A stretch of 64,000 nucleotides of DNA from an uncultured Bacteroidales bacterium (GCA_964448235.1 CAYUWD010000004.1:4878-68877); one strand, 5' to 3'; counted from the first letter of the stretch, positions 17,297 to 43,909 are shown. Notes: generated by a model from the letters alone, not told the origin. Made by a program: numbers and translations.

Positions 17297-17317
17297 AGCT
17301 AAATATTTTACAATACA

Positions 17318-18454: not shown

Positions 18455-18456
18455 AA

Positions 18457-18855
18457 CTATACTTTTAAAAGTTTGTTTATTTCTCTATGTAATTGATCTG
18501 ATCTTATTCCTTTTTCAAGATAAAGATCTGCTTTTATCCATTTCCGTTCATCATCAGTATCAAGAGAAAACACCATTCCAGTATCAGCAGTTACAGCAGT
18601 AGCAAGAATAATAGGAACATCCGGATATTTATTCTTCATTTTATAACTAAGAATAAAACCACTATCTTTATTTTCCATCATTAAATCAACAATTGCTAAA
18701 TCTGGTTTTGTGTTTTCAATTATCTCTTCCCCTTCTTTTTGTCCATCTGCAATAATAGTATTAAATCCAAAACTCTCAACCTGAATTTTCAACTGATTTG
18801 CGTAATCTACATCATCATCTACAATTAAAATTGTCTTGTTCATCTTGTCTTTCAT
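18457..18855 (-). CDS. Stand-alone response-regulator receiver protein (CheY-like)
   Basis: 132 aa. ILIVDDDVDYANQL...LAIVDLMMEN...LEKG, with no output domain. Confidence 0.85.
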   Translation of the reverse strand: MKDKMNKTILIVDDDVDYANQLKIQVESFGFNTIIADGQKEGEEIIENTKPDLAIVDLMMENKDSGFILSYKMKNKYPDVPIILATAVTADTGMVFSLDTDDERKWIKADLYLEKGIRSDQLHREINKLLKV

Positions 18856-18885
18856 AATTATATATTTTTAAATTTATTCATTACA

Positions 18886-20865
18886 TTAATTCTTTGGAAT
18901 ATCAATAATAAAAGAGGTACCTGTAGGCCCATTTTCAGCTTTATCATTTGTAACAATATCTATTTTCCCATTATGCATTTTAACAATCCCATATACAAGT
19001 GGCAATCCCAAACCAGTTCCTTTACCCATTTCTTTAGTTGTAAAGAATGGAGTAAATAATTTTTCCATATTTTCTTTAGGGATACCCACACCAGTATCAG
19101 AAATAGTAATTTTAACTTTATCTTCAGTTTCCGATAATTTAACACCTAATATACCTCCTTTAGGCATAGCTTCAATAGCATTTTTTTCAAGATTTATAAG
19201 TACCTGCATCATCTGATCCTGATCAATCATTACAAAATAATCTGAAATTTCTAATTTAAGGTCGAGACTTATCTCTTCGGGTATTATAAGAGCTTCAAAA
19301 CTATGTTTAATAAAATCTCTAATATCTGTTTTTTGCTTTTTCACATTGTTCTTTCTGGCAAAATTCAATAAACCACCCACAATTTTTTTACATCTTGCTG
19401 TTTGTTCAACAATTAATTCCAAATCTTCATACATTGGGTCATTTTTTGCTACCTCCTCTTTGAGTATATTACTATACATTGTAATAACACCCAACGGATT
19501 ATTGATTTCATGTGCAATCCCAGCCGAAAGTTGTCCCATATTTGCCAGTTTTTCTGACTGTTTTAATGCTTGTCTTGCATCTGCCAAACTTTCATTTGAC
19601 TGATTCAATTCCTGTATAGATTTATGCAATTTCTCAATTGTGTATGGTAAACACATCTCAATTTCTGCCAATCCCTGTATTATAGCAATTGCATGCTCTC
19701 TACAGGTCGCATATCCACAAGCACCACAATCTAAATAATCAGATTTATCATGTTTACCCATATTTCTCAACACAGCTAAAATTTCTTTTTCGTCAGGTTG
19801 CACAACTCTTCTATCAAGAGGCTTAAAGGATTGTGATAAATCAATATTTTTAAATTCTTCAAATTCTTTTGACCATGCTTCATGATCAAAATCTCTGAAT
19901 TTTTGTTGAACATAATCCCTAATTTTAGTACGCTTAAGATATCTGTCATTTTTTTCAGTCATACCAGGTCCCATGATGCAACCTTTACAGCATAATAATT
20001 CCATATATTTACAATTAAGCTTACCATTCTCAAATTCAGAGATTATTTCTTTAAAATTATTTTGCCCTGAAGCATTAATAATTTCTCCCTCCATTATATT
20101 ATCAGTTTTGTTTATTGTTTGCAATAAACCTCTTGACACTGCAAGAACAGACCCTTTCCCTGCCTCAGGAGAATCAAACCTCATCATTTTACTATTTTCA
20201 GGCTTTATATTATACCTAGCAAATAGCTCTCTTAATTCTTTATATGTAATTACTTCGTCAACTTCATCAGATTCTGCTTTTTTGGCAATACAAGGTCCAA
20301 TAAATACAACTTTTACATCATTACCATATTTCTTTTTAACAACTCGACTTGTAGCTACCATCGGCGAAACTATAGGAGCAAGATTTTTAACTAAATAGGG
20401 ATGATAATGTTCAACATAAAAAACAATTGATGGACAATCAGATGATAAATAACTTACCCCATTATCATTTTCAATAAGTTCTTTATATTTTGGTGCTATT
20501 AAATCTGCTCCAAATCCTACTTCGACAACTTTTGCAAATCCTAATTTCTTAATCATACCAACCAAGTATTGGTAATCAGGAATTTCTGTAAATTCTGCAG
20601 GAAAACTAGGTGCAATAATAGCAATTACTTTATTTTCGGAACTTAGTAATTTTTCTGTGGCAGAGCTGCAATCAAGGAACACTTTTGCCCCCTGACTGCA
20701 GACTCTAACACAATTACCACAGCCTATACATTTCTCATTTATTATTTCAGCTTGGCCATTAATTATTCGAATAGCTTTGACTGGACACTCTCTCACACAA
20801 GTATAGCAAACACGACACTTATCCTTTACTGTAATTACTAAACTATTTCTTTTTATATGTCCCAT
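18886..20865 (-). CDS. Sensory [FeFe]-hydrogenase-like domain fused to a histidine kinase (candidate H2-sensing kinase)
   Basis: Two ferredoxin motifs (CRVCYTCVRECP and CIGCGNCVRVC). H-cluster-like motifs SSDCPS, GPCIAKKAE and CCKGCIMGPG. A Cx2Cx4Cx16C motif (CGACGYATCREHAIAIIQGLAEIEMC). A coiled coil, the H-box AHEINNPLG, and ATPase boxes NLEKNAIEAM, DTGVGI, GTGLGL. Confidence 0.8.
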   Translation of the reverse strand: MGHIKRNSLVITVKDKCRVCYTCVRECPVKAIRIINGQAEIINEKCIGCGNCVRVCSQGAKVFLDCSSATEKLLSSENKVIAIIAPSFPAEFTEIPDYQYLVGMIKKLGFAKVVEVGFGADLIAPKYKELIENDNGVSYLSSDCPSIVFYVEHYHPYLVKNLAPIVSPMVATSRVVKKKYGNDVKVVFIGPCIAKKAESDEVDEVITYKELRELFARYNIKPENSKMMRFDSPEAGKGSVLAVSRGLLQTINKTDNIMEGEIINASGQNNFKEIISEFENGKLNCKYMELLCCKGCIMGPGMTEKNDRYLKRTKIRDYVQQKFRDFDHEAWSKEFEEFKNIDLSQSFKPLDRRVVQPDEKEILAVLRNMGKHDKSDYLDCGACGYATCREHAIAIIQGLAEIEMCLPYTIEKLHKSIQELNQSNESLADARQALKQSEKLANMGQLSAGIAHEINNPLGVITMYSNILKEEVAKNDPMYEDLELIVEQTARCKKIVGGLLNFARKNNVKKQKTDIRDFIKHSFEALIIPEEISLDLKLEISDYFVMIDQDQMMQVLINLEKNAIEAMPKGGILGVKLSETEDKVKITISDTGVGIPKENMEKLFTPFFTTKEMGKGTGLGLPLVYGIVKMHNGKIDIVTNDKAENGPTGTSFIIDIPKN

Positions 20866-20896
20866 AATTAAATGTCCAACTTAATTTCAATTATAT

Positions 20897-22621
20897 TTAT
20901 TTCAACACCTTTCTTTGACAATACTCGGTATGCAATAAATCATGACTAACATGACTTAAAGGTTCACCTAAAAACTCTTTATATAATTCAATAATTTCCG
21001 GATTTGAGTGAGATGTTTTCACTTCCTCAGTTTTATCAATATTATATAGTAATTGCATTCTTGCCTTTAGTTGTTCTTCAGTAGTCCCAATATGCTGACC
21101 ACCACCATTAATACAACCTCCAGGGCAAGCCATTATTTCTATAAAATGGATATCTTTTCGCCCTTCACGTATTTCATCTAATAAGATACTCGCATTTTTT
21201 AATCCATTAACCACAGCAATTCCAAGTTCTAAATCACCAATTTTAACTTTTGTTTCTTTACGACCTTCAAGTCCTCTGATTTCATCTATTGTATAATTCT
21301 TCAGTTCTTCACCTGTAAGTTTAAAATATGCAGTACGTATAGCTGCCTCAGTCACACCACCACTTACACCAAACAATTTTCCTGCAGAACTTCTAAAACC
21401 ATGAGGAGAATCAGCTGCTTCGGGTTCAATATTATGAACATCCACCCCCATTGTTTTAACAAACTGACTAAATTCACGTGTAGTTAATACTGCATCTACG
21501 TCAGAATATCCATTTTTAGTCATTTCTTCTCTTTGAGCTTCGAATTTTTTTGCAGTACAAGGCATAATAGAAACCGAGTAAATATTTTCCGGTTTCACAT
21601 TACTAATTTTAGCCCAATATGATTTAATAACAGATCCTAACATTTGTTGTGGAGACTTACAAGAAGAAATATGCGGAAGCATATCAGGATAAAACTCTTC
21701 TGCAAATTTTATCCATGCAGGACAACAACTTGTCATCATAGGTAAAACTCCATTATTTGTAACCCTATGGATAAGTTCGGCAGACTCTTCCATAATAGTT
21801 AAATCGGCAGAGAATGAAGTATCAAAAACATAGTCAAATCCAATTTTACGAAGAGCAGTATTCATAATTCCATTTGCATCTGTTCCTGCTTTCATATTAA
21901 ACTCTTCAGCTAAAGATACAGATATTGCAGGAGCATATTGCACAACTACTACTTTTTTAGGATCATTTAGTGCTAACTGAATCTCACCAAAGTGATTTTT
22001 CTCACTTAAAGCACCTGTAGGGCAAACAACAACACACTGTCCACAATTTACACAACTTGAAGTATTTAAACCTTTATTAAAAGCTGTACCAATGACAGAT
22101 TTACTTCCCCTATTTATAATATCAATAGCAGAAACACCCATCATTTCTTCACAAACTCTCACACATCTTTCACACAAAATACACTTATTAGGATCCCGCA
22201 CAATACTAGGGCTAGAACGATCCATGTGATAATCATTTTTTATTCCAATGATTCTTCTTTCTCTTACATTTAAGTCTTCTGCTAACTTTTGTAATTCACA
22301 ATTCCCATTTCTAGAACAATACAAACAATCATCCGGATGATTTGAAAGCAATAATTCTACAATAGTTTTTCGTGCTTCGATAACACGAGGAGAATGAGAT
22401 TTAATTTTCATCCCATCTTCAACTGGTTGTGAACACGAAGGTATAAGACGACCAGTTTTTTCATTTTCCACAACACAGATTCGACATGCTCCCGTTGGAA
22501 AAGAATCCTTTAAATGACAAAGCGTTGGGACTTTTATCCCATTCCTTGTTAATGCGTCAAGAACAGTTTCACCTTTAACTGCTTCAACCTTTTTATTATT
22601 TATTTCAATGTAAATACTCAT
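20897..22621 (-). CDS. hydA: [FeFe]-hydrogenase catalytic subunit HydA (multi-FeS, NuoG-like N-terminus)
   Basis: Canonical H-cluster motifs TSCCPAW, MPCTAKKFE and EIMACPGGCINGGG. N-terminal 2Fe-2S and 4Fe-4S Cys motifs. The ATG at 22621 (MSIYIEINNKKV) is preferred over the TTG at 22630 used by the track. Confidence 0.9.
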   Translation of the reverse strand: MSIYIEINNKKVEAVKGETVLDALTRNGIKVPTLCHLKDSFPTGACRICVVENEKTGRLIPSCSQPVEDGMKIKSHSPRVIEARKTIVELLLSNHPDDCLYCSRNGNCELQKLAEDLNVRERRIIGIKNDYHMDRSSPSIVRDPNKCILCERCVRVCEEMMGVSAIDIINRGSKSVIGTAFNKGLNTSSCVNCGQCVVVCPTGALSEKNHFGEIQLALNDPKKVVVVQYAPAISVSLAEEFNMKAGTDANGIMNTALRKIGFDYVFDTSFSADLTIMEESAELIHRVTNNGVLPMMTSCCPAWIKFAEEFYPDMLPHISSCKSPQQMLGSVIKSYWAKISNVKPENIYSVSIMPCTAKKFEAQREEMTKNGYSDVDAVLTTREFSQFVKTMGVDVHNIEPEAADSPHGFRSSAGKLFGVSGGVTEAAIRTAYFKLTGEELKNYTIDEIRGLEGRKETKVKIGDLELGIAVVNGLKNASILLDEIREGRKDIHFIEIMACPGGCINGGGQHIGTTEEQLKARMQLLYNIDKTEEVKTSHSNPEIIELYKEFLGEPLSHVSHDLLHTEYCQRKVLK

Positions 22622-22638
22622 GATAATCAAATTAAATA

Positions 22639-24588
22639 TTAGACAATTTCAATTGCATTAAATTTACAAGCCTCAGCGCAAGTCCCACATCCGATACACT
22701 TATCTTCAACAATAAAATGAGGAGTTTTCTTTGCACCAATAATTGCACCTGTTGGACATTTCTTCGCACAAACAGTACAGCCTGTACATGCATCCACATT
22801 AATTTTAAATACTCTCAAATTAGTACAAACACCAGCAGGACATTTTTTATCATATATATGCGCATCATACTCATCTTTAAAATATCGCAAAGTACTCAAT
22901 ACAGGATTTGGAGCTGACTGTCCTAATCCACAAAGAGATGTTTCTTTTATTACTTTTGCTAATTTTTCTAGCTGTATTACACTTTTAAATCTATCTAAAG
23001 CTTCGTTTCCTTTTGGATTTGTAGGTTTAGATGTAATACTTTCAAGAATTTCAAGCATTCTTTTTGTTCCTTCACGACAAGGTATGCATTTACCACAAGA
23101 TTCTCTTTGTATAAAATCCATAAAGAACTTAGCAACATCAACCATACATGTATCTTCATCCATTACAACCATGCCACCAGATCCCATCATAGCTCCCACT
23201 TCTAATAATGAATCATAATCTATAGGAATATCTAAGTTTTGTTTAGTAATACACCCTCCTGATGGTCCACCAATTTGTACTGCTTTAAATTCTTTACCAT
23301 TTGGAATTCCTCCGGCAATATCAAAAAGGACTTCACGAATTTTGGTTCCAATAGGAATTTCAACTAATCCAGTCAAACTTATTTTTCCAGACAAAGCAAA
23401 TACTTTTGTCCCTTTGCTTTTTTCTGTACCAATAGTTATAAATTCATCTTTCCCCATTTCCATAATACCAGGGATATTTGATAATGTTTCTACATTATTT
23501 ATCACAGTTGGTTTTCCAAAAAGGCCACTTGTTGTTGGAAATGGAGGTCGAGGTCTTGGCATTCCTCTTTTACCCTCAATACTATGAATAAGAGCTGTTT
23601 CTTCTCCACAAACAAAAGCCCCTGCACCCATTTTAACTTTAATATTAAAATCAATACCAGTATTAAAAATATTCTCACCCAACAAACCATACTCTTCAGC
23701 TTGTTTTATAGCAATTTTTAATCTATCAATTGCCAAAGGATATTCGGCTCGAATATATACATATGCCTTGGTTGCTTCGATAGCATATGCTGCAATTACC
23801 ATTCCTTCAATTAACCTATGAGGGTCTCCTTCAATAACAGCTCTATCCATAAACGCTCCAGGATCACCTTCGTCAGCATTACAAATTAAATATTTTTGAT
23901 CACTTTTTTCTTTATTTGCAAATTTCCATTTCATTCCTGTCGGAAAACCTCCACCACCACGACCACGTAAACCAGAATCTAAAATAATCTGACAAACTTC
24001 TTCACTTTTATAATTCCCAATAACTTTAATGATATTTTTATAGCCTCCCCTTGCAATATACTCATTAATACTAACCGGATCAACAACTCCACAATTCTTA
24101 AGAACAATTCTTTTTTGCTTCACAAAAAATGGATGTTCATTAATATCTCTTATCCCTTCCCATTCTTTACTATTTTGATTCTTAAATTGACCTAAAATAT
24201 CTTTTTCAGGTAATTTAAAATTAAATACATCATCTAATAAAGTATCAACTTTATCTTCTGTAACATGTTCAAAAGAAATTCTGTTATAACCAGGCAATTG
24301 CACATCTAATATTGGTTCTGATGAACATAAACCAATACAGCCTGTCTTTATAATTCGCCCATTAATGTTGTGATCTTTTAGATATGTTTCAACTTTCTCA
24401 AATGTTTTACCAGCCCCTGCTCCTAAACCGCAAGTACCTGTTCCAACATATAAAATAGGTTCATCTGTTAATACATTTTTATAACGAGATATTTTATCAA
24501 TCAATTGATCATCTTTTGAATTTGATGAATAATCTCTCAAAACCTCATCTACAAAAAATTCCTTTTCTATATTTGTACTTTTTTCCAT
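22639..24588 (-). CDS. hydB: NuoF-like flavoprotein subunit HydB of the hydrogenase
   Basis: FMN/NADH site GRGGGGFPTGMKW, N3 cluster ESCGKCIPCREG, N-terminal thioredoxin-like 2Fe-2S region, and a C-terminal 2x[4Fe-4S] region (CTGCTVCAKKCP and CIGCGTCAEAC). Confidence 0.9.
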   Translation of the reverse strand: MEKSTNIEKEFFVDEVLRDYSSNSKDDQLIDKISRYKNVLTDEPILYVGTGTCGLGAGAGKTFEKVETYLKDHNINGRIIKTGCIGLCSSEPILDVQLPGYNRISFEHVTEDKVDTLLDDVFNFKLPEKDILGQFKNQNSKEWEGIRDINEHPFFVKQKRIVLKNCGVVDPVSINEYIARGGYKNIIKVIGNYKSEEVCQIILDSGLRGRGGGGFPTGMKWKFANKEKSDQKYLICNADEGDPGAFMDRAVIEGDPHRLIEGMVIAAYAIEATKAYVYIRAEYPLAIDRLKIAIKQAEEYGLLGENIFNTGIDFNIKVKMGAGAFVCGEETALIHSIEGKRGMPRPRPPFPTTSGLFGKPTVINNVETLSNIPGIMEMGKDEFITIGTEKSKGTKVFALSGKISLTGLVEIPIGTKIREVLFDIAGGIPNGKEFKAVQIGGPSGGCITKQNLDIPIDYDSLLEVGAMMGSGGMVVMDEDTCMVDVAKFFMDFIQRESCGKCIPCREGTKRMLEILESITSKPTNPKGNEALDRFKSVIQLEKLAKVIKETSLCGLGQSAPNPVLSTLRYFKDEYDAHIYDKKCPAGVCTNLRVFKINVDACTGCTVCAKKCPTGAIIGAKKTPHFIVEDKCIGCGTCAEACKFNAIEIV

Positions 24589-24590
24589 AA

Positions 24591-25055
24591 TTAATCGGCT
24601 TTATTTCTATAGTTTTCTACAATACCCTTAATTGATTCCTTTGTTACTTTAGCATGAAAGTTCCCATTTACACATATTACAGGAGCCAACCCGCATGCTC
24701 CAATACAAGCTACAACTTCTATACTAAACATCTTGTCTTTTGTTGTATCTCCAGCTTTTATTTCCAATATTTTCTCCAACTCCTCCAACACTGTTGCAGA
24801 CCCTAAAACATGACATGCTGTTCCTCTACAAACCTGTATGTGATATTTACCCTGAGGCTTAAATCTAAATTGATTGTAGAAGGTTGCTACTCCATAAATT
24901 TTACTTGTGGGCATATTTAAATATTCGCCTACTTCTACAATCAATTCCTCTGATAAATACCCATTAGCTTCTTGCACATCCTGTAAAATTGGAATCAGAT
25001 TATCCTGACTAGCTGTTGGATACTTTGAAAAAACATCTTTTACTTTTGCTTCCAT
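24591..25055 (-). CDS. hydC: NuoE-like [2Fe-2S] subunit HydC of the hydrogenase
   Basis: CRGTACHVLG...CIGACGLAPV pattern and a size of 154 aa. Confidence 0.9.
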   Translation of the reverse strand: MEAKVKDVFSKYPTASQDNLIPILQDVQEANGYLSEELIVEVGEYLNMPTSKIYGVATFYNQFRFKPQGKYHIQVCRGTACHVLGSATVLEELEKILEIKAGDTTKDKMFSIEVVACIGACGLAPVICVNGNFHAKVTKESIKGIVENYRNKAD

Positions 25056-32847: not shown

Positions 32848-33423
32848 ATGAAAACGATATGTGTATTTTGTAGTTCTAGTGATGATTTAAAAAAAGAATA
32901 TTACAATCTTGCTAAAGATTTAGGAATACTTTTAGCTAAAGAGCATTATTCTTTAATTCATGGTGCTGGAAGCATCGGTCTTATGGGTACTCTTATGCAA
33001 ACAGCCTCAAAATTAGGTGTAAAAATAACTGGTGTAGTTCCAGAAAGGTTAAATAGAAAAAATATTGTTAACGATAAATATCAGAAACTTATCATAACAC
33101 CAGACATGAAAGAACGTAAAGAATATATGCGAAAAAATTCTGATGCATTTATAATACTACCTGGTGGATTTGGAACTATTGAGGAACTTATGGAGACCTT
33201 AACCTTAAAACAACTAAAATATCATAGTAAACCAATAGTAATAATAAATTATAATGGATTTTATGACAATCTCATAAAAATGTTTGACGTACTTTATTAC
33301 GAAAATTTTACTAATAAATCTTACAAAAATCTTTACTATATCTGTGATAACACAAAAGATGCTATTGATTACATAAAAAACTATGTTCATACTAATATTT
33401 ACGATAAATATTTACGTGAATGA
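32848..33423 (+). CDS. LOG-family (TIGR00730) nucleotide phosphoribohydrolase
   Basis: GAGSIGLMG and PGGFGTIEEL motifs. Confidence 0.8.
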   Translation: MKTICVFCSSSDDLKKEYYNLAKDLGILLAKEHYSLIHGAGSIGLMGTLMQTASKLGVKITGVVPERLNRKNIVNDKYQKLIITPDMKERKEYMRKNSDAFIILPGGFGTIEELMETLTLKQLKYHSKPIVIINYNGFYDNLIKMFDVLYYENFTNKSYKNLYYICDNTKDAIDYIKNYVHTNIYDKYLRE

Positions 33424-33445
33424 ATAATCTTAAAACTATATATTA

Positions 33446-34558
33446 ATGAAAAACCATTTCCCAAAAGAGATTTATTTAACCAGAACACGTAAACGTGAAA
33501 TTGATATTCGTGGAGATTTCTTTCGGGATCAAACTGCAATTATTCATTCTACTGCTTTTCGCAGATTAAAAAATAAAACTCAAGTATTTTTTGCTCCAGA
33601 AAATGATCATATCTGTACTCGTATAGAACATGTGCTACATGTAGCTACAATTGCTGCAACAATTTGTAAAGGCTTAAACTCTCATGGATGGAATTTAGAT
33701 ATCGATATGGCATACGCTATTGGACTAGGACATGATTTAGGACATACTCCATTTGGACATGCCGGAGAAATGGCATTAAACAAAATACTTGGTGGGAACA
33801 ATGCATTTATCCATGAAATAAATTCATATAGACAAGTACAATATCTTGCAAATAATGGACTCGGATTAAACCTATGTTATGGAGTCAAAGATGGTATAAT
33901 ATGTCATAATGGAGAAAAAGATGAACAAATATTAAAACCTACAAAATCATTAAACGAACTTGACGAAATAAAAAACAGAAAAGTTATCCCAACATCCTAC
34001 GAAGGATGCATAATGCGCTTTTCTGATAAAATTGCTTATCTGGGTAGAGATATCGAAGATGCCTTTGTTGCAGGATTTATTACAGATCAAGACATCCCTA
34101 AAGATGTAAAAAATCTTTTAGGAGATAGAAATGGTCAAATAATTCAAACTCTTATTGTTGACATAATTAACAATTCTGCACACAAAGATAGCATTGGTTT
34201 TTCTGATGAAACTTTCGAAATGGTTACAAAATTAAAACATTTTAACTACAAAAATATATACGGACATCCAGAATTAAGAAAATATGATGTTTTTTGTGAC
34301 AGAATAATAAATAATCTTTTCGAATATACTTTTGAATTATTATCTAAAATCGGTTTTGAATTTGAAAGATATTCTTCATCCGGAATTGAATTAGATAAAA
34401 ATTTTGGAGAATACCTAAAAGGACAATATAATTTTTACAACAAAAGCAATGACAGTAAAGAACAGATAATAACAGATTACATTTCGGGGATGACTGACTA
34501 TTATGCTTTAGAATCAATAAAACAAATTACCATTCCAAAACCTATACAATTTAAATAA
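33446..34558 (+). CDS. dGTP triphosphohydrolase-like HD-domain protein
   Basis: FRDQTAIIHSTAFRRLKNKTQVF, TRIEHVLHVA, GHDLGHTPFGHAGE. Confidence 0.8.
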   Translation: MKNHFPKEIYLTRTRKREIDIRGDFFRDQTAIIHSTAFRRLKNKTQVFFAPENDHICTRIEHVLHVATIAATICKGLNSHGWNLDIDMAYAIGLGHDLGHTPFGHAGEMALNKILGGNNAFIHEINSYRQVQYLANNGLGLNLCYGVKDGIICHNGEKDEQILKPTKSLNELDEIKNRKVIPTSYEGCIMRFSDKIAYLGRDIEDAFVAGFITDQDIPKDVKNLLGDRNGQIIQTLIVDIINNSAHKDSIGFSDETFEMVTKLKHFNYKNIYGHPELRKYDVFCDRIINNLFEYTFELLSKIGFEFERYSSSGIELDKNFGEYLKGQYNFYNKSNDSKEQIITDYISGMTDYYALESIKQITIPKPIQFK

Positions 34559-35026
34559 ATGTCAAAAGAGATTATATTCGAATTAGAAACATTATCCGAA
34601 AATATAGCAAATGATTTTGCGAATCTTCTGATAACAAATCTAAGTTCAATATATCCAATCAGTCTAAAGAAAAAAATCATAGCCTGTAGCATTGAATTAA
34701 TACAAAATAATTTAATTCATAATAATCAAAATGCTAGTTTAAAAATACTGGAAAACTCGTATAACTATTATATTAATATAATAGAGCTTATAGATAAGGA
34801 ACATTTTGAAAAACTAAAACAAAGCATTAATAGAATCAACAATTCTCAAACAAATATCTTACGAGAGAAGTACTTACTTAATTTATCAACGAATAAAAAA
34901 AATACGGGAAATGGTTTACTATTTTGCAGTCTAAAATCAAAAAACAATATAATAATTGAAAATCAGAACTTTTATAAATCTGAAGTTACAAATATGTCAA
35001 TAACAATAAAATTTAATAAAACATGA
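34559..35026 (+). CDS. SiaB-like / RsbW-like small GHKL-type kinase candidate
   Basis: 155 aa. N-box-like ELIQNNLIHN and a Gly-rich NTGNGLLF. The ATG immediately follows the dGTPase stop codon. ATGA overlap with the downstream DUF1987 gene, the usual SiaB partner. Confidence 0.45.
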   Translation: MSKEIIFELETLSENIANDFANLLITNLSSIYPISLKKKIIACSIELIQNNLIHNNQNASLKILENSYNYYINIIELIDKEHFEKLKQSINRINNSQTNILREKYLLNLSTNKKNTGNGLLFCSLKSKNNIIIENQNFYKSEVTNMSITIKFNKT

Positions 35027-35385
35027 AAATACTAATCTCCAAAGATAAAAAATCTCCAGAAGTAAAATTTAATGATAACGATAGTATTTTATATATTGAA
35101 GGTTTGCTAATACCCGAAAACCCTGAGATTTTCTTTAAAAAGCTCAACAATATCATATTTTCATCGTATAAAGACAATATTAAATTTGTTATTTCATTTA
35201 GTTTAGAATATTTTAATACAGGTGCAGCAAGATTTTTATACAAATTATTTGTAAAACTTAAAGAATATAAAAACATTGAAATAATATGGGAATACGAAGC
35301 TGATGATGAAGATATATTAGAAAGTGGGAAAGAATTTGAAACTCTTACCAATCTTCCATTTGTTTTTAAGGAAATAAAAAAATGA
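35023..35385 (+). CDS. DUF1987 / SiaC-family regulatory phosphoprotein-like
   Basis: SPEVKFNDNDSILYIEGLLIPENPEIFF...LEYFNTGAARFLYKLF...IIWEYEADDEDILESG follows the DUF1987 pattern. Confidence 0.7.
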   Translation: MKILISKDKKSPEVKFNDNDSILYIEGLLIPENPEIFFKKLNNIIFSSYKDNIKFVISFSLEYFNTGAARFLYKLFVKLKEYKNIEIIWEYEADDEDILESGKEFETLTNLPFVFKEIKK

Positions 35386-36656
35386 TAAAACTTAAACACA
35401 TTATTTTTTTCATACTTATATTTTATTTATCTAAGATATATTCACAAACCCTCTATAATAATGGCAACAATATCTGGCTAAATAATTCAGCCATTATGCA
35501 AATAAACGGAGATATTATTAATGCATATGGAGACATAAATTTAACAAAAAACAATGAAACAACATCTGAATTACATATTACTGGAAATTTAATCAATAAC
35601 TCTACAATTAATGCAAATGGTATTATTAGTATTATAAAAAACTGGTATAATAACGCAAGTTTCGAATCACAATCTGGAATAGTATTACTAGCAGGCACAA
35701 ATCAACTAATAAGCGGATCTGTCTCATCTACATTTTATAATCTAAAAGCAAGTTCGGATGGATTAAAAACTCTTGAAATAAATCAATATATAAATGGAAA
35801 ACTCGACTTATATAATTCGGAGTTTAATACACAAGAATATATATTAGAAATATTAAACACATCACCAGATGCTATTATAACAACCAATGGTTATGTATCC
35901 TCTGATCAAGGAGGATTTTTGGCCAGAATGATGCAATTTGATGAAAACTATGTTTTTCCGGTAGGATCACATACAGGAACTGATAGAATTAGATTTGTAA
36001 ACATAAAACAATCAACAGAAGAAAATTCAAGATTTCTGGTACGATTTATTAACCATAGTGCAGATAATGATTCCTATCCAACATCTAGTCATGACACATT
36101 ATCAGATTATATTAATACATATTATTATCACCAAATAAACAGAACAGATGGTAATGCAAGCGTAAAACTAGAAATCGAATTTGAAGAACAAGATGGAAAT
36201 TTTAATGCTATAAGTAATTGGGATACAAATAATCAATTATTATGGAGAACAATTGTAAATTCATACTCAAATGAAACTACTTATAGTTGTATGGCAGACA
36301 GTATTGATTTTGACAATTATGAATACTTTGCCCTTAGCACAAAAGCCGTTATAGAAGAGCCTGTAATACCCATTGAACCAATTGTCCCTGAATTTAATGT
36401 TTATAATTCTTTCTCTCCAAACGGAGACAATTACAATGACACTTGGGTTATTGATGGAATTGGATCTTATCCCAATTGTAATATAAAAATTTTTAATAGA
36501 AATGGTAACCTGATTTTTAATTCAGATGGTTATCAAACGCCTTGGGATGGGAAATATAAGAATGACAATGTACCTGATGCAACTTACTATTATATAATAG
36601 ACTTGTATGGAGATGGGAATAACTTAATAAAAGGTGGTGTTACAATAATTCGTTAG
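35382..36656 (+). CDS. T9SS type-B (gliding motility-associated C-terminal domain) cargo protein
   Basis: Signal peptide. C-terminus FSPNGDNYNDTWVIDGIGSYPNCNIKIFNRNGNLIF...PWDGKYKNDNVPDATYYYIIDL...GGVTIIR. Confidence 0.8.
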   Translation: MIKLKHIIFFILIFYLSKIYSQTLYNNGNNIWLNNSAIMQINGDIINAYGDINLTKNNETTSELHITGNLINNSTINANGIISIIKNWYNNASFESQSGIVLLAGTNQLISGSVSSTFYNLKASSDGLKTLEINQYINGKLDLYNSEFNTQEYILEILNTSPDAIITTNGYVSSDQGGFLARMMQFDENYVFPVGSHTGTDRIRFVNIKQSTEENSRFLVRFINHSADNDSYPTSSHDTLSDYINTYYYHQINRTDGNASVKLEIEFEEQDGNFNAISNWDTNNQLLWRTIVNSYSNETTYSCMADSIDFDNYEYFALSTKAVIEEPVIPIEPIVPEFNVYNSFSPNGDNYNDTWVIDGIGSYPNCNIKIFNRNGNLIFNSDGYQTPWDGKYKNDNVPDATYYYIIDLYGDGNNLIKGGVTIIR

Positions 36657-36657
36657 A

Positions 36658-37614
36658 ATGAAAAAATATGCTTTATATATATTATTACTATTTTTTACAA
36701 ATATTTGTATAAGTCAACAATTACCACAAATAAGTCTTAGACACAAAAATTTGTTTTTTTTAAATCCAGCAGTTGCAGGATCAACCAGTTCACAGGAAAT
36801 AAAGATATTGCATCGTGAACAATGGGCAGGTTTTGAGAATGCACCAACGACTTCTGTTATTAGTTTCAATAAAGAAATAAATACGACAAACGGAATAGGA
36901 GGATACATTATTAATGATATTACAAATCCTACTTCAAGGTTAACTCTAAATCTTTCCTATGCATACATTATTGATATGGATGACATTTTTTTATCTTTTG
37001 GATTGTCCGGAAAAATAATACAATATCGAATAAATGGAGCAGATTTAACGTATCGAGATATAAATGATCCTGTTATGGCTTTTGGGACAGAAAAGAAATG
37101 GCGCCCCGAAGCAAATTGTGGGGTATTATTATATAGTAGAAATTTTTATACAGGCTTTTCTATTAACAATCTTATAAAATCTCAATTTAGACCTTTTGCT
37201 AACGATGAATTAGGTGAAATATATATGGTAAGACATATCTATTTTATGGGACAATATGATTTTATTTTTGAAACACATCGTATAAGTCCAGGAATTTATA
37301 TTGGTTATGCAAAGAAGAGCCCAATAAATACAGAATTAAATATATCATGGTTATATAATAATAGCTTACATTCTTCACTAGGATATCGTTTTGGTGATGC
37401 AATTAACTTAGCCTTAGGATATCGCTTTGGCAGATTCTCTCTATACTATGGATATGATATTGTTACATCTGCTTTACGAAATGTAAATAGCGGATCACAT
37501 GAAGTAATGTTAGGTATAGATATTAGCAGAGAACAAAAAAACATCCCTATGTTTTCCTCTGGTGGCAGTTCAAATCGACATAAATACAATCGTTCAAAAA
37601 AGAGAATGTTTTAA
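36658..37614 (+). CDS. PorP/SprF-family T9SS outer-membrane protein
   Basis: QQLPQISLRHKNLFFLNPAVAGS N-terminus, beta-barrel-like alternating pattern, and a position directly after a type-B cargo gene. Confidence 0.8.
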   Translation: MKKYALYILLLFFTNICISQQLPQISLRHKNLFFLNPAVAGSTSSQEIKILHREQWAGFENAPTTSVISFNKEINTTNGIGGYIINDITNPTSRLTLNLSYAYIIDMDDIFLSFGLSGKIIQYRINGADLTYRDINDPVMAFGTEKKWRPEANCGVLLYSRNFYTGFSINNLIKSQFRPFANDELGEIYMVRHIYFMGQYDFIFETHRISPGIYIGYAKKSPINTELNISWLYNNSLHSSLGYRFGDAINLALGYRFGRFSLYYGYDIVTSALRNVNSGSHEVMLGIDISREQKNIPMFSSGGSSNRHKYNRSKKRMF

Positions 37615-37738
37615 TATTATATCCTATTACTTAAAAAACCTTTTACTGTAATTAAAATTAAACATTAAAATCATATAAGCAATAAAAATTAAATATATAT
37701 TACAACTATTTTACTGTTTATATATTACATAATCAAAT

Positions 37739-39076
37739 TTAGAAAAAGGATGCAATCTTATGAATTGCTCCGGGTAAAGCAAAAATAACAACTTTATCAT
37801 TTGGTTTAATTTGTGTATCTCCCATAGCAATAAAACTTTTAGCCCCTCGTACTATACCGGCAATAATAACACCCTCAGGAAGATTCACATCTCGCAATTT
37901 ATTTTTTGAGATTAAAGCATCACGAGAAGTAATAAACTCAAGCACCTCTGCATCTGTTCCAGTAAGGCATTTAATCGAAGACACTTCTGCTTTCATGGTA
38001 AATGTATATATAGTACTTGCAGCACTTAATTTCTTATTAATAATTGTATCAATCCCCATTTTAGATGCAATATCTATGTAATCCAAATTCTCAACTTCAG
38101 CAATTGTTTTCTTTACTCCGTAACGTTTTGCTAACAAACAAGTCAAAATATTTGTTTCTGCATCACCAGTAACAGCAACAAATGCATCTGTTTTTGTAAG
38201 TCCTTCTTCAAGTAAAACATCAATATTTCTGCCATCACCATTAATTATCATAGATTTAGGAAGCATATCTACAAGTTTAAAACTTTTATCAGGATTATGT
38301 TCAATCATTTTAACATTCAAATGATTTTCAAGAAATTTTGCAGATTTAATACCAATCCTACTTCCTCCTAAAAACATAACATTGTCAAGCTCTAATTTTT
38401 CTTTCCCGGCAGTTTTAAGAAGACTTGATATTCCATTTGGATTGGTTATAATATATACGAAATCTCCTTCTAGTAATTTATCATCTCCTTTAGGAATAAT
38501 CGTTTTACCATTTCGGGTAATTGCTACAGCTCTATAATTTTTATTTTTAGCAAGAACCGCTGCTTCGCGTAATGTTTTATTTATTATTGGGGATTTATCG
38601 TCAAGTTTTAATACGAATAATGTAAGTTTCCCACCAGAAAACTCAAATATTTCTGTTGTTCCTGTTTGTTTAATAACGCCTACAACTTCTTTTGCCGCAA
38701 TATATTCAGGATATATCAACCTATCAACCCCTAAATTAATAAAAGTAAGTTTATTTATTGGGCTTAAATACTCCATATTATCAACTCTAGCTACAGTTTT
38801 TTTTGCGCCCAGTTTCTTGGCAAACACACATGATAAGATATTTGTGTCTTCAGAATTTGTTACAGCAATATATAAATCACAAAATTGAGTATTTGCTTCC
38901 TTCAAAGTTTTAAAAGACGTACATAAACCTTCAACACACAAAACATCATAAGTATTATCCACCTCCTTTAAGATATCACTTCTTGTATCAATAATTACAA
39001 TATCGTGATTTTCCTTAGTTAACATTTTAGCTAAATAAGACCCTACCTCTCCTGCACCAGAAATAACAATTTTCAT
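37739..39076 (-). CDS. trkA: Trk potassium uptake system protein TrkA
   Basis: Two RCK/NAD-binding repeats (MKIVISGAGEVGSYLA and VMFLGGSRIGIKSA), 445 aa. Confidence 0.85.
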   Translation of the reverse strand: MKIVISGAGEVGSYLAKMLTKENHDIVIIDTRSDILKEVDNTYDVLCVEGLCTSFKTLKEANTQFCDLYIAVTNSEDTNILSCVFAKKLGAKKTVARVDNMEYLSPINKLTFINLGVDRLIYPEYIAAKEVVGVIKQTGTTEIFEFSGGKLTLFVLKLDDKSPIINKTLREAAVLAKNKNYRAVAITRNGKTIIPKGDDKLLEGDFVYIITNPNGISSLLKTAGKEKLELDNVMFLGGSRIGIKSAKFLENHLNVKMIEHNPDKSFKLVDMLPKSMIINGDGRNIDVLLEEGLTKTDAFVAVTGDAETNILTCLLAKRYGVKKTIAEVENLDYIDIASKMGIDTIINKKLSAASTIYTFTMKAEVSSIKCLTGTDAEVLEFITSRDALISKNKLRDVNLPEGVIIAGIVRGAKSFIAMGDTQIKPNDKVVIFALPGAIHKIASFF

Positions 39077-39954
39077 AATAAATTCTCTTTAAATATTTCT
39101 TTAATTTGATTAGCGTATTTTAACTCAAACCCATTGAGATTTTTATGTTTCAATGCAAGAATTCTAATATCAAAAAAGAAGGATAAGTAGTTTAAATATG
39201 TCATATTTTCAAAATCCTGCAATTTCTTTTTTATTTTTCTTTCTTCTAAATAATTTTCTACAATTTGATGATTAATAAACTCTCCTTTATCAAAAGGGTT
39301 TATATAAAATACGGCACCATTATTTTTTTCTTCAAAAACCACATCAGCCAATTCAGGATCGACATAGCTTAGAATAAACAATCCAGGTAATGCAACGGGA
39401 TATAATGGTAATTCTATTTCTTGAGCGATTATACAATATAATAAGCTTATATTCGGAGCGACATACTTTTTTTCAGCAATACAATTAAAAAAACTAAGAT
39501 ACTCTGGTTTAAAACTAGATACGGGATATTTTCTAAACTTTAGTTGTTCAAATAGTGTTTTTCCAATTAACTTAACTTTTTCAATACCAGTAAGCTGATC
39601 ATTTAATTCAATCCAAATACTTTGTATGATTTTAGTTGTTTCCTTTTTTAAATAATTTACATCTATTTCCCTATTAAAATACTCTTCTAATAATAATACT
39701 CCCTCAAGTAAATTTGGTTTATTAGAATTGATATATTTTTTAAGTTGTTTTTTAAAATAAAGAAGGAAAATCTCTTCAATTAAGAGTTCTGATCTTTCTA
39801 TAGCTAGTTCATTTACAGATAGTGCATGAAAATTATCTAGATATACTTTAAACATTTCTGCATCTGCAAGAATTTTAGTTTTAATCAACTCAAAAACTTT
39901 TTCGTCAGGATCTTCCAACAGTTTCAATAATGATATTATTTCATTTTTATTCAT
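39073..39954 (-). CDS. Hypothetical protein, translationally coupled between the RelA/SpoT gene and trkA
   Basis: Open frame of 293 aa with overlaps at both ends. No motif that I can name. Confidence 0.5.
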   Translation of the reverse strand: MNKNEIISLLKLLEDPDEKVFELIKTKILADAEMFKVYLDNFHALSVNELAIERSELLIEEIFLLYFKKQLKKYINSNKPNLLEGVLLLEEYFNREIDVNYLKKETTKIIQSIWIELNDQLTGIEKVKLIGKTLFEQLKFRKYPVSSFKPEYLSFFNCIAEKKYVAPNISLLYCIIAQEIELPLYPVALPGLFILSYVDPELADVVFEEKNNGAVFYINPFDKGEFINHQIVENYLEERKIKKKLQDFENMTYLNYLSFFFDIRILALKHKNLNGFELKYANQIKEIFKENLL

Positions 39955-42157
39955 TTTCTAAATCTTCTAATCTAGTCACTTTACTAACACCCTTAATACG
40001 AATAATTCTACTAATTAAATCCTCCAAATCCTGTGCATTATGTACAAAAAGCTTAATCTCACCATGAAACACGCCATCATTTGTTTCTATTTTTATTGAT
40101 TTTATATTTACATCTGCTTCTTGAGATATTACTTTTGTAATGTTATAAACAATACCTAATTTGTCGACACCTTCGATTTTAATTTTAACCAGAAATGATA
40201 ATAATTTATAACTCGACCACTTTACAGCAATTATTTTATCTCCATGTTTTGCTGCAAGATTATTTAATACGGAACAAGTTTTTTTATGTATAATGACTGA
40301 ATTATTAGGATTTAAATAACCTGCCACTTCATCACCAGGAATAGGATTACAACAAGATGCCAATGTAAATCTTTGACTGTTTATATCATCAACTACGTAG
40401 GTATTCTTATCTTTTGAGAGTTGTTTATTTTTAGGTTTACTTCTGGTTAGTCTCCAATATTTTACAAATATATTAGTTGGATTTTTCAATAATTGTTTTT
40501 CAATATCATCCATTTGGATTGTTCCTGAACCTATTTTTCTGTAAAATTCTTCTTTATTAGGAACATTATAATTTTGTCGAAGTTCTTTAAATATTTTGTG
40601 ACTAAGATTTAATTTTAATTGTCTTACTTTAGTAATAAAAATTTCTTGACCTTTTTCAATATTATGTAATCTTTCCTCTTTAAGAGAACTCTTAATCCTT
40701 GATTTAGCTTTAGTAGAAATAGCAAATCCCAGCCATTCTCTCTTAGGTGCTTGTTTTGAGGATGTAAGTATTTCTACCTGATCGCCACTATGTAAGACAT
40801 GAGATAATGGTTGTAGTTTATGATTTACTTTAGCGGCAATTGCTTTATTGCCAATTTCTGTATGAATTTCATATGCTAAATCAATAACAGTAGAAGCTTT
40901 TGGCAATTTTTTTATTTCTCCCTTTGGAGTAAAGACATAAATTTCTGTTGTAAAAATATTTAATTTAAAGTCATCTAAAAAAGACAATGAATCAACCTGA
41001 TTATTTGTTAAAGAATTTTTTAAAGTTTCAATCAAAGCATCTAAGCTACCAGAAGCTCCATTTTCATTAGTTTTGTACTTCCAATGTGATGCTAATCCTT
41101 TCTCTGCAATATCGTCCATCTTTCGACTTCTGATTTGAACTTCGACCCAAAGTCCTCTTGGCCCCATTACCGTAACATGTAGAGCTTCATATCCATTGGC
41201 TTTGGGATTTTTAACCCAATCTCTAATACGTTGTTCATGATGTGGATATATATCAGTAATTATAGACATAATATGGTAACATTGAGACCTTGCTTTTTGA
41301 TCAGGATAATCATCTTCGTGGTCAAAAACTATTCGTATTGCAAACAAGTCATAAATTTCCTCAAAAGTAACTCCTTTAGTTTGCATTTTATTCCAGATAG
41401 AATAAATAGATTTCAATCGACCCTTTATTGTAAATTTTATTTTCTCTCTATCTAAAACAAGTTTTAACGGGTCAATAATCTCTTGAATATACTTAGTTCT
41501 TTCTTCCTCTGTTTCTTTGAATTTACGTTCAATTTCACGATAAATAAGTGGATGTTCATATTTTAAAGCAAGATCTTCTAACTCAGTTTTTATTGAATAT
41601 AAACCTAATCTATGAGCCAGCGGAGCGTATAAATATACTGTTTCACTACATATTTTCACCTGCTTATATTCGGGCATTGAATCTAAAGTCCTCATATTAT
41701 GCAGTCTATCAGCAAGTTTAATAAATATAACACGAACATCCTGAGACATTGTCATCAGCATTTTACGGAAATTCTCTACTTGCAAAGAAGTATCCTTATC
41801 TAAAACATTTGAAATTTTTGTTAACCCGTCAATCATTCCGGCTATTGATACGCCAAAAAGTCGTTCTATGTCTAATAAAGTAAAATCAGTATCTTCTACA
41901 ACATCATGTAATAATGCACTAGCAATTGATTTTGGGCCAAGGCCAATTTCTTGAGCAACAATAAAAGCAACAGCAATAGGATGAGAAAAATATGGTTCCC
42001 CAGATCTTCGCCTCATTTTTGAATGAGCATCATTTGCAAGATCAAATGCTTTTCGCACTAATTGAATATCTTCTTTTGATTTAATTCTTTTACTCGCCTT
42101 AACTAACTTGTCAAACTGATCTTCAATCCATATTTTTTCATCTTTGGTAAGGCTCAT
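39947..42157 (-). CDS. spoT: Bifunctional (p)ppGpp synthetase/hydrolase (RelA/SpoT homologue)
   Basis: HD hydrolase domain (RRSGEPYFSHPIAVA...HDVVEDT), a synthetase domain, TGS and a C-terminal ACT-like domain, 736 aa. Confidence 0.9.
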   Translation of the reverse strand: MSLTKDEKIWIEDQFDKLVKASKRIKSKEDIQLVRKAFDLANDAHSKMRRRSGEPYFSHPIAVAFIVAQEIGLGPKSIASALLHDVVEDTDFTLLDIERLFGVSIAGMIDGLTKISNVLDKDTSLQVENFRKMLMTMSQDVRVIFIKLADRLHNMRTLDSMPEYKQVKICSETVYLYAPLAHRLGLYSIKTELEDLALKYEHPLIYREIERKFKETEEERTKYIQEIIDPLKLVLDREKIKFTIKGRLKSIYSIWNKMQTKGVTFEEIYDLFAIRIVFDHEDDYPDQKARSQCYHIMSIITDIYPHHEQRIRDWVKNPKANGYEALHVTVMGPRGLWVEVQIRSRKMDDIAEKGLASHWKYKTNENGASGSLDALIETLKNSLTNNQVDSLSFLDDFKLNIFTTEIYVFTPKGEIKKLPKASTVIDLAYEIHTEIGNKAIAAKVNHKLQPLSHVLHSGDQVEILTSSKQAPKREWLGFAISTKAKSRIKSSLKEERLHNIEKGQEIFITKVRQLKLNLSHKIFKELRQNYNVPNKEEFYRKIGSGTIQMDDIEKQLLKNPTNIFVKYWRLTRSKPKNKQLSKDKNTYVVDDINSQRFTLASCCNPIPGDEVAGYLNPNNSVIIHKKTCSVLNNLAAKHGDKIIAVKWSSYKLLSFLVKIKIEGVDKLGIVYNITKVISQEADVNIKSIKIETNDGVFHGEIKLFVHNAQDLEDLISRIIRIKGVSKVTRLEDLENE

Positions 42158-42339: not shown

Positions 42340-43860
42340 TTAATCTATAAACAAAAAGAAGGTTCCTGTTTTTTGATGTTCTTTTCCAGTATGGTCATAA
42401 TATCTTAAGAAATATGTATAAAACTGTGATGGAGCTAAATTAATATGGTTAATTGTCCCATTCCAACCTTCATAAGTTTCTGTTGTTCTAAAAAACTCTT
42501 CCCCAAATCTATTATATATAACAAACTCATAAGGTTCTTTTTCGACAAATGACAAAACAGGCTTAAATTCTCTATTTTCGGTTTCAAATGAAGTTGCATT
42601 AAATGCATTTGGCATCCAAACTACAGGATAATGATTCACACATTTCATATTCGAACGACTAACACCCATATTATCGGCATACTCAGGGCTTTCGCTTTCA
42701 ATTGCTTCTACATAGTAGCAAAATTCGTTTGTCATATGAATTTTTCTATCATGACAATAGTCTACATACCACTCTATATTATAAACACTTGCCGTATTAC
42801 CTGGTGTGTTTACAGCAATTTCCGAAGCAGTACCATTAAAAAATCGATAAACTTTATAATTACTAACACCATTGGGCCAAGCATAATAATCTGTCCAACT
42901 CACATTATGTTGAAACTCATTATCATTAGTTACAGTTATTAAAATATTCGAACATATATTAGAATATGAATCAATAATACCACAAGGATTTACAGAAGCT
43001 AACCTATAATAATACCTGTTTTCATCTACATTAACATCATAATCAGTATGCATAATATTATTCTGGCCTGAATTAGGATATGATTGAATAGTAGAAAAAT
43101 TACCATCAGGTGAATTTGCTCTTTGAATTCTATACTCAATAGCTTCAGATGAATTATCCACTAAAAAATTAACAACAATATTTTCTCCATTAACAGTTGC
43201 ATATTGTGCATGCATATAAGACGGGAAACTATATGCACCTGTTAGAATTTCGACAGAATTTGTTGTTGCTTTATTTCCGGAATTACTTGTTGCTTCAACA
43301 TAATAATAATACTTTTCATTGAAATCAATATCATTATCCTCATAAGACAGTTCAGTTGAAGACAAACTAGAGAGTATTGTATAATTAGAAGTTTCAGTTC
43401 TACGATAAATTTTAAAAGAATTTAATCCATTATCCCATCCACTATAATTTGTCCATTCAAGTTTAACAGTAGTATTACACTTATCATACTCTAAAGATAA
43501 AAACATTGTTGTATGAGGATCTGTGATACTTGATTTATAAAACAAATCATCAAAAGCAGCGAGACGAAATTGTTCAGGTTTTGTAATAATTGAAGACATA
43601 TTATACTCATAGGTTGTTGATAATCTTCCCCAAACAGTATCAATAGTTTCTGTAACTCCTGAAATGACTTGATAAACAATATATCCTTGCACATCTAAAG
43701 AATCACTAGGACTCCAGTTTAATATAACAGATGTAGGATTCGATTCTGGAATAATACTTGCAGAAATAAACACTGGTGAATCAGGATGATCTATTTGAGA
43801 AAAAACCTGACTTGAAAACAAAAATGCTATTCCCAAAAATATGTATCTTAATTTACTCAT
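42340..43860 (-). CDS. FN3-repeat surface protein with a T9SS type-B-like C-terminal domain
   Basis: The start was moved to MSKLRYIFLGIAFLFSSQVFSQ (ATG at 43860). Repeated W..Y.GW.NG..S.KVYR modules. C-terminus VWMPNAFNA...FKP...YEFVIYNRFGEEFF...GWNG. Confidence 0.65.
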   Translation of the reverse strand: MSKLRYIFLGIAFLFSSQVFSQIDHPDSPVFISASIIPESNPTSVILNWSPSDSLDVQGYIVYQVISGVTETIDTVWGRLSTTYEYNMSSIITKPEQFRLAAFDDLFYKSSITDPHTTMFLSLEYDKCNTTVKLEWTNYSGWDNGLNSFKIYRRTETSNYTILSSLSSTELSYEDNDIDFNEKYYYYVEATSNSGNKATTNSVEILTGAYSFPSYMHAQYATVNGENIVVNFLVDNSSEAIEYRIQRANSPDGNFSTIQSYPNSGQNNIMHTDYDVNVDENRYYYRLASVNPCGIIDSYSNICSNILITVTNDNEFQHNVSWTDYYAWPNGVSNYKVYRFFNGTASEIAVNTPGNTASVYNIEWYVDYCHDRKIHMTNEFCYYVEAIESESPEYADNMGVSRSNMKCVNHYPVVWMPNAFNATSFETENREFKPVLSFVEKEPYEFVIYNRFGEEFFRTTETYEGWNGTINHINLAPSQFYTYFLRYYDHTGKEHQKTGTFFLFID

Positions 43861-43909
43861 AATATACCCTTCATAATATAAACGCATACGACACTATAAA
43901 AGTGGCTTA

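Follow-up and report, generated by a model that had tools for sequence, protein, structure and literature searches.

Does a SiaB/SiaC-like phospho-switch control the secretion of the surface protein encoded directly behind it? The question is raised by a 64,000-nucleotide (nt) stretch of DNA from an uncultured Bacteroidales bacterium (hereafter the window). Positions 33446–37614 of the window encode, in order, a dGTP triphosphohydrolase-like HD enzyme, a SiaB-like protein, a SiaC-like (DUF1987) protein, a type-B cargo of a type IX secretion system (T9SS) and a PorP/SprF-family protein. A preliminary description of the locus had proposed that the SiaB/SiaC-like pair is wired to secretion or surface attachment of this cargo. 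Our analysis leans towards a different answer: the locus would carry an uncharacterised SiaB/SiaC-type switch within a LOG-dGTPase operon, and an ordinary T9SS cargo/PorP cassette would have been added at the 3′ end of this operon.

To our knowledge, SiaB and SiaC are known solely from Pseudomonas, where they drive a diguanylate cyclase; the Bacteroidota are a phylum largely without cyclic di-GMP signalling. In Bacteroidota we find the pair to be widespread, unaccompanied by SiaA or SiaD, and to occur in two fixed settings, either behind a dGTPase-like gene or facing a fused ATP-binding cassette (ABC) transporter. For a signalling module that is uncharacterised, these settings suggest concrete candidates for the output. 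The proposed T9SS link is weak; of the new observations, the HD-SiaB-SiaC operon and the association with the ABC transporter are the more solid.

The SiaB/SiaC-like pair and its probable operon

At the family level, the two small proteins are a SiaB/SiaC-like pair. The 120-residue SiaC-like protein (35023..35385, plus strand), a putative phospho-protein, matches SiaC/DUF1987 (PF09345) with 80.7 bits against a cutoff of 24.5; here and below, Pfam matches were judged by gathering scores and NCBIfam matches by curated cutoffs. Its family profile matches the SiaC structures 6k4f and 6kko_C (E about 1e-15). Against the NCBIfam SiaC equivalog NF038265 the protein scores 36.4 (cutoff 150), and by sequence it is a member of the SiaC family and not an equivalog of P. 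aeruginosa SiaC. Residues Y63-F64-N65-T66 align with the Y-L-N-T of 6k4f and 6kko_C, the motif that holds the phosphorylated Thr68 of P. aeruginosa SiaC (PMC7278518, PMC8457831). Thr66 is the putative phospho-acceptor, and both N65 and T66 are invariant among 154 distinct relatives.

The 155-residue SiaB-like protein (34559..35026, plus strand) is a putative small GHKL-type kinase. It matches DUF6272 (PF19788) with 36.3 bits (cutoff 26.6), and scores 19.4 against the NCBIfam SiaB family NF038262, far under the cutoff of 85. A single-sequence search against PDB sequences gave no match; a profile built from Bacteroidota DUF6272 members matched P. aeruginosa SiaB (6kko_A) with E = 1.5e-19. Moreover, when the AlphaFold2 (AF2) model of the protein (predicted local distance difference test score (pLDDT) 84.4, predicted template modelling score 0.81) was searched with Foldseek, the top match was SiaB 6kko_A (template modelling score (TM) 0.77, E = 1.2e-6), ahead of SpoIIAB and RsbW. 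The model supports a SiaB/GHKL anti-sigma-kinase fold. We examined the N-box (E-x-x-Q-N), the glycine lid (G-x-G-L) and the 'GN' strand motif. The N-box (E46, Q49, N50, H54), the lid (G117-x-G119) and K126 are invariant in all aligned members of the two classes of relatives, A and B, that are described below.

The pair sits among genes that are joined almost without spacers. The stop codon of the HD gene (TAA, 34556–34558) directly abuts the ATG of the SiaB-like gene at 34559. ATGA overlaps join the SiaB-like to the SiaC-like gene (35023–35026) and the SiaC-like gene to the cargo gene (35382–35385), and a single base, 36657, lies between the cargo stop codon and the PorP start codon. Upstream, 22 nt before the HD gene and on the same strand, is a LOG/TIGR00730-family Rossmann-fold gene (32848..33423, plus strand) whose product is nucleotide 5′-monophosphate nucleosidase-like (Pfam Lysine_decarbox, 131.6 bits; TIGR00730, 172.6 against a cutoff of 96.35). 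Tight junctions are usual in bacterial operons; they favour co-transcription and are not remarkable alone. From them we infer that six genes, LOG, HD, SiaB-like, SiaC-like, cargo and PorP/SprF, probably form one operon (32848–37614), of which LOG is probably the first gene. A scan for sigma-70 promoters and terminators between 32.3 and 38.0 kb was uninformative, as the counts equalled the shuffled expectation and the plus strand was without a terminator. The Bacteroidota −7 motif TAnnTTTG occurs in the window at chance level (113 matches, 114 expected), and scans of the whole window for Rfam families and tRNAs gave no matches.

The gene directly ahead of the pair (33446..34558, plus strand) encodes a dGTP triphosphohydrolase-like enzyme of 370 residues. 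The protein carries the Pfam domains HD and HD_assoc and scores 188.9 against TIGR01353, the dGTPase subfamily (cutoff 152.35). Its translation contains the motifs RIEH, GHDLGH and RFSDK, an intact H...HD...D metal site. All equivalog-level models fall under their cutoffs and thus leave its substrate specificity unassigned. We considered whether this enzyme might replace SiaA as a protein phosphatase, and set the idea aside because it is a canonical and highly conserved dGTPase-subfamily enzyme that also occurs without the pair. We also rejected the reading of the locus as a defence island: the NCBIfam anti-phage dGTPase model scores 156 against a cutoff of 400, and the locus lies beside dnaA, in a conserved synteny of housekeeping type. 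PADLOC flags only HD (dGTPase model, 197 bits) and leaves LOG and the SiaB-like and SiaC-like proteins unflagged.

We looked for SiaA and SiaD without success, and for this reason the locus does not qualify as a SiaABCD system. Domain scans covered every open reading frame (ORF) of at least 90 residues from 12.2 to 56.9 kb and, outside that interval, most of the larger ORFs of the window. Neither in these ORFs nor in the Pfam-annotated flanks of related loci did we find a PP2C/SpoIIE domain (SiaA-type phosphatase) or a GGDEF domain (SiaD-type cyclase). The SiaB-like and SiaC-like proteins have no signal peptide, membrane segment or DNA-binding domain. Sec signal peptides are present on the cargo and the PorP protein, and on none of HD, SiaB-like and SiaC-like.

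Most of what the preliminary description had read from this locus stands. Its five plus-strand ORFs are found at the positions and with all the junctions that it gave them; its tightly joined block of five genes becomes a likely operon of six with the addition of LOG. The SiaB-like/SiaC-like pair is borne out by Pfam scores and by profiles matching SiaB and SiaC, as is the kinase-like fold of the 155-residue protein by a model closest to SiaB, and the stated lack of SiaA and SiaD nearby holds in the scanned ORFs. The same is true of the type-B cargo and its PorP/SprF neighbour, for which CHU_C, TIGR04131, PorP_SprF and TIGR03519 are all above cutoff. Indeed, the profile hidden Markov model (HMM) check that it suggested places HD, DUF6272, SiaC, CHU_C and PorP_SprF past their gathering scores.

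Two settings of the pair in Bacteroidota

Our survey took in about 165 SiaC-like loci, both genomic and metagenomic. Searches with a SiaC-like profile yielded 80 loci in species-representative genomes and another 80 in metagenomes; the contigs of individual homologues were added, and on all of them ORFs were called locally and annotated by iterated HMMs. In most loci with upstream sequence (81 of the first 91), SiaC is directly preceded by a DUF6272 gene. The loci fall into two classes: class A, the small Bacteroidales clade of the window, with about 15 lineages, and class B, with 151 loci.

In class A the order HD (370 residues)-DUF6272-SiaC is found in every locus with the upstream gene on its contig. 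The preliminary description had left the HD gene as a bystander; here it is the constant neighbour of the pair, overlapping or nearly touching it: in 14 non-redundant loci the HD/SiaB junction measures between −17 and +3 nt. Upstream of HD, synteny extends to LOG in all class A loci but L008–L010, and even in these, with LOG missing, the HD-SiaB-SiaC block is kept. The downstream neighbour varies. It is mostly a convergent TrkA gene, and in other cases GlnA (L180), an aminotransferase (L175, L013) or a BspA-LRR protein (L014). The three proteins of the block differ in their rates of change. Across class A, HD is 71–86% identical, the SiaC-like protein shows identities of 42–66% (42–75% when the full set of class A SiaC proteins is compared with that of the window), and the SiaB-like protein diverges fast, with identities of 24–51%. 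Class A SiaB-like proteins are also about 30 residues shorter than those of class B.

HD is also found on its own. It has thousands of relatives and occurs without the pair in other Bacteroidales and in Marinilabiliales; in two orthologous cases (65% and 62% identity), neither LOG nor SiaB/SiaC accompanies it. Because this conserved gene also exists alone, we conclude that at the base of class A a housekeeping-type HD gene was joined, a single time, by the pair.

The wider neighbourhood of the class A block is conserved too. In the window (33446–42157) and in syntenic loci it reads dnaA ... LOG-dGTPase-SiaB-SiaC / TrkA-transglutaminase-like-RelA/SpoT, so that two nucleotide-hydrolysing enzymes and a (p)ppGpp synthetase/hydrolase are encoded within 9 kb of each other.

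Class B, from Bacteroidales, Flavobacteriales and Chitinophagales, is a free-standing pair. It comprises a DUF6272 protein of about 185 residues and a SiaC protein of 126 residues, with a spacer of 20–40 nt between their genes and an upstream intergenic region of its own of about 150 nt. In 101 of the 119 loci with enough sequence, the pair converges on a gene for a fused ABC_tran + ABC2_membrane transporter of about 1020 residues, at a median distance of 90 nt (L016–L090 and L095–L170; for example L023:7411–11542). The pair and this transporter are an uncharacterised, phylum-wide gene association. The transporter of L016 bears a TerB-like N-terminus. No HD, PorP or CHU_C gene lies within 7–8 kb of the pair in any of the 151 class B loci.

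The two classes also differ beside the putative phospho-acceptor. From the threonine on, class A has T-G-A-A-R, class B T-S-S-S-K and Pseudomonas T-S-S-I-K. In Pseudomonas the residues after the phospho-Thr touch SiaD (PMC8457831). The altered residues of class A fit a changed binding partner.

The cargo-PorP cassette and its history

The two genes at the 3′ end of the operon encode a T9SS substrate and its presumed partner. The cargo (35382..36656, plus strand; 424 residues) consists of a Sec signal peptide, an all-beta head of about 310 residues (approximately residues 22–335) and a CHU_C sorting domain (residues 339–423). CHU_C scores 81.4 bits (cutoff 27), and TIGR04131, the type-B sorting domain, 65.6 (cutoff 35). 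The hydrophobic N-terminus, MIKLKHIIFFILIFYLSKIYS/Q, has a likely S/Q cleavage site. In the AF2 model (pLDDT 94.4), the C-terminal domain (CTD) resembles the T9SS substrate CTD 8glk_D (target-normalised TM 0.72). The head (window 35445–36386) has no significant PDB fold match by Foldseek and belongs to no Pfam family. It is also the N-terminal domain of 630 representative type-B CTD proteins of 400–3000 residues, which bear SprB, Ig or PKD repeats and CHU_C. To judge by sequence, the cargo is a minimal member of this SprB-like surface-protein family, and its head is a candidate new domain family of such proteins.

The PorP/SprF-family outer-membrane protein (36658..37614, plus strand; 318 residues) scores 200.6 bits with PorP_SprF (cutoff 22.3) and 203.7 with TIGR03519 (cutoff 90.55), and begins with the signal peptide MKKYALYILLLFFTNICIS/QQ. 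Its gene follows the cargo gene by 1–4 nt in all three lineages that possess it, and we presume the protein to be the cognate partner of the cargo. Type-B CTD proteins need and bind cognate PorP/SprF-like proteins that are encoded alongside them (PMC9143113). Because they rely on such adjacent partners, the cargo and PorP genes make up a standard, self-contained unit.

T9SS substrates are common in this part of the genome. They account for 5 of the 47 window ORFs of at least 90 residues (about 10%), a density at which chance adjacency to any given gene is not rare. A 515-residue protein of the window (42340–43887, minus strand) matches CHU_C weakly, with 25.1 bits against a cutoff of 27, and its gene has no PorP neighbour. 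Most class A loci, those without the cassette included, carry this gene syntenically after RelA/SpoT. A surface protein of more than 2006 residues, cut by the window edge (2–6022, plus strand), has nine SprB repeats and a type-A (Por_Secre_tail) CTD.

How old is the junction between switch and cassette? The preliminary description had called for a survey of such adjacencies in Bacteroidota. Ours finds that the arrangement is not unique to this genome, since it recurs in two further lineages. By contrast, it is confined to three of about 15 class A lineages and is found in none of the 151 class B loci. The carriers are the window, a Marinilabiliales group of metagenome-assembled genomes (MAGs; L003–L005 and L012) and a Bacteroidales MAG group (L008–L010). 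In the latter two, SiaC is about 57% and about 49% identical to that of the window. Among the three lineages cargo orthologues are 51–54% identical and PorP orthologues 62–71%, and the overlap between SiaC and cargo genes is kept in each (−4, −4 and −14 nt).

In neighbour-joining trees of HD and of concatenated HD, SiaB and SiaC, the three cassette lineages belong to one subclade with 94% bootstrap support. This subclade also holds L006 and L171/L173, which are without the cassette and in which SiaC is followed directly by TrkA. L011, which has no cargo gene, keeps the decayed 3′ end of a PorP gene (positions 831–986; the last 54–64 codons) between SiaC and TrkA. The remnant, which is 52% identical over 54 residues to window PorP residues 265–318 and is interrupted by a frameshift and two in-frame stops, is a deletion scar. 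Such a scar is seen in L011 only: tblastn searches for cargo or PorP remnants in L006, L171, L173, L177, L015 and L178 found none. Because cassette-less lineages share the subclade of the carriers and L011 keeps a scar, the simplest history suggested by these sequences is that the cassette was inserted once and deleted at least three times, and that every deletion spared the switch. Cargo-PorP cassettes are mobile as well as dense in these genomes, and we caution that tight adjacency alone is weak evidence for regulation.

Elsewhere in the window, a cluster on the minus strand (14449–25055) marks the organism as an anaerobe. It encodes an [FeFe]-hydrogenase (20897–22630), a Nuo51-like subunit, a 2Fe-2S thioredoxin-like ferredoxin, a HydF maturase and a radical-SAM maturase, together with a hydrogenase-domain sensor histidine kinase (18886–20865) beside a hybrid kinase/receiver. 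A CotH kinase-family protein (218.8 bits) is encoded at 60970–62385 on the minus strand of this Bacteroidota genome.

What the switch may control, and how it compares with known systems

The mechanism that we propose has two layers. The old and constant core, HD-SiaB-SiaC, would be a lineage-specific joining of a SiaB/SiaC-type switch to a housekeeping-type deoxynucleoside triphosphate (dNTP) triphosphohydrolase gene. If the pair works as in Pseudomonas, Thr66 of the SiaC-like protein would be phosphorylated by the SiaB-like kinase, and this phosphorylation would toggle binding of the SiaC-like protein to a cytoplasmic target; nearby genes do not supply the phosphatase that the switch would need for resetting. 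The cargo-PorP cassette would have been inserted once at the operon 3′ end in one subclade and later deleted several times. To judge by the junctions, it would be co-expressed with the switch in the window, but it would be neither an obligate part of the switch nor its target. The target of the switch is most likely cytoplasmic. Direct control of an exported cargo or of an outer-membrane barrel is topologically awkward, because the switch proteins are cytoplasmic and without DNA-binding domains.

By gene linkage, the best candidate for the target is HD, because no other gene accompanies the class A pair without exception. The switch would then control dNTP/nucleotide pools. We regard this as a tentative proposal. 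A more elaborate form of it, which we consider rather unlikely, is that the switch has been rewired to the dNTP triphosphohydrolase: partner switching would set nucleotide pools, with the SiaC-like protein binding the HD oligomer in one phospho-state, and some lineages would co-express a minimal SprB-family protein and its PorP anchor. If it were true, a growth or nucleotide-status signal would be coupled to surface display.

Several observations weigh against our preferred reading, that of a switch embedded in the LOG-dGTPase operon and joined late by a cassette. The linkage to HD has a single evolutionary origin, and given that origin vertical inheritance alone could explain it; the survey contains no independent association of HD with SiaB/SiaC. 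HD is very conserved and housekeeping-like, and the pair may merely use its promoter. The kinase activity that we infer for the SiaB-like protein is not assured, because class A proteins are without the 'GN' motif of SiaB and class B; the motif is replaced by I-E in the window protein and is variable through class A. The conserved SiaC/cargo overlap indicates that the cassette is properly integrated in the operon and not merely adjacent. Moreover, other T9SS substrates flank the class A block. In L014, a 972-residue BspA-LRR protein with a type-A CTD (8448–11366) is encoded 90 nt after SiaC. In L008–L010, a thioredoxin-like, PKD-containing protein with a type-A CTD (L008:4153–6276) is encoded 157 nt upstream of HD. 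These flanking genes could be coincidence, such genes being dense, or a weak pattern.

The strongest rival explanation is transcriptional hitch-hiking. The pair would act on an unlinked target, possibly an ABC transporter of the class B type, and both pair and cassette would lie behind a constitutively expressed LOG-dGTPase operon, tied functionally to none of their neighbours. We find this a plausible minority position, a little less so than HD as the target. It accommodates an HD gene that is slow-evolving, of housekeeping type and alone in other Bacteroidales and Marinilabiliales, and an HD-pair association that arose only once. Class B pairs are autonomous two-gene units with their own upstream region and another conserved neighbour, and as the entire dnaA...RelA/SpoT neighbourhood is syntenic, conservation may reflect shared ancestry. 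Three other results speak against hitch-hiking. Rearrangements on both flanks (L008, L175, L180) have left the HD-SiaB-SiaC block unbroken. Its genes still overlap or lie no more than 3 nt apart, while the SiaB-like protein diverges to 24–51% identity. Finally, the surface of SiaC by the phospho-Thr differs from that of class B, a difference that suggests a partner other than the ancestral one.

We began with the proposal that the SiaB/SiaC-like switch specifically controls production, secretion or attachment of the type-B cargo through PorP/SprF. This claim of the preliminary description fares poorly, and we now think it improbable. Cargo and PorP orthologues do always occupy the same position, the overlap with SiaC has survived in lineages whose SiaC has diverged to about 57% and 49% identity, and L014 has its own T9SS substrate just downstream of SiaC. 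The authors of the SiaC-SiaD structure propose that DUF1987 proteins modulate adjacent proteins (PMC8457831). Yet few class A lineages and no class B locus have the cassette, and each of its three or more losses left the switch in place. Cargo and PorP are Sec-exported and the switch proteins are not, so that contact would be possible only before export, and neither switch protein has a DNA-binding domain. With about one gene in ten a T9SS substrate, adjacency by chance is not rare.

It is very improbable that the SiaB-like protein is no longer a kinase, leaving the pair a pure binding module (for sequestration, anti-sigma-like) or in decay. Its short length, missing 'GN' motif, low NCBIfam SiaB score and rapid divergence speak for this reading; against it stand an invariant N-box, lid and K126, a confidently predicted fold, an invariant phospho-acceptor Thr in its partner and intact ORFs in all lineages.

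In the literature that was searchable we found no prior mention of DUF6272, of DUF1987 with Bacteroidota, T9SS or dGTPase, or of partner-switching with T9SS. The closest known system is SiaABCD of P. aeruginosa (PDB 6KKO, 6K4F; PMC7278518, PMC8457831). The gene order is the same, a DUF6272 GHKL-type kinase and then DUF1987; the predicted kinase fold is nearest to SiaB, and the N-T motif of Thr68 is kept as N65-T66. By contrast, no SiaA (PP2C) or SiaD (GGDEF) was found in the scanned window ORFs, and both window proteins are far under the NCBIfam SiaB and SiaC cutoffs. The SiaC-like protein has G-A-A-R after the threonine where Pseudomonas has S-S-I-K, the SiaB-like protein is shorter and without 'GN', and the pair is joined to a dGTPase-like operon.

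Class B pairs are closer to hand. They comprise the same two families in the same order, with N-box, lid and N-T motifs identical to those of class A. They differ in being free-standing and in converging on an ABC transporter, with no HD or T9SS gene nearby.

SpoIIAB/SpoIIAA and RsbW/RsbV likewise pair a small GHKL kinase with a small alpha/beta phospho-protein, and their kinases are structural neighbours of the 155-residue model. SiaC is itself described as a structural relative of STAS (PMC8457831). Here, however, no sigma factor is encoded near the pair, and the phospho-protein is DUF1987, not STAS.

The cassette, finally, resembles SprB-SprF and PG1035-PorP (PMC9143113). It too has a CHU_C/TIGR04131 CTD and a PorP/SprF gene immediately downstream, both products have signal peptides, and the cargo head is common to long SprB-repeat, Ig and PKD proteins. 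Unlike those systems, the window cargo is minimal, a head and a CTD without repeats, and no porE-like gene is adjacent; and instead of standing alone, the cassette ends an operon of cytoplasmic enzymes.

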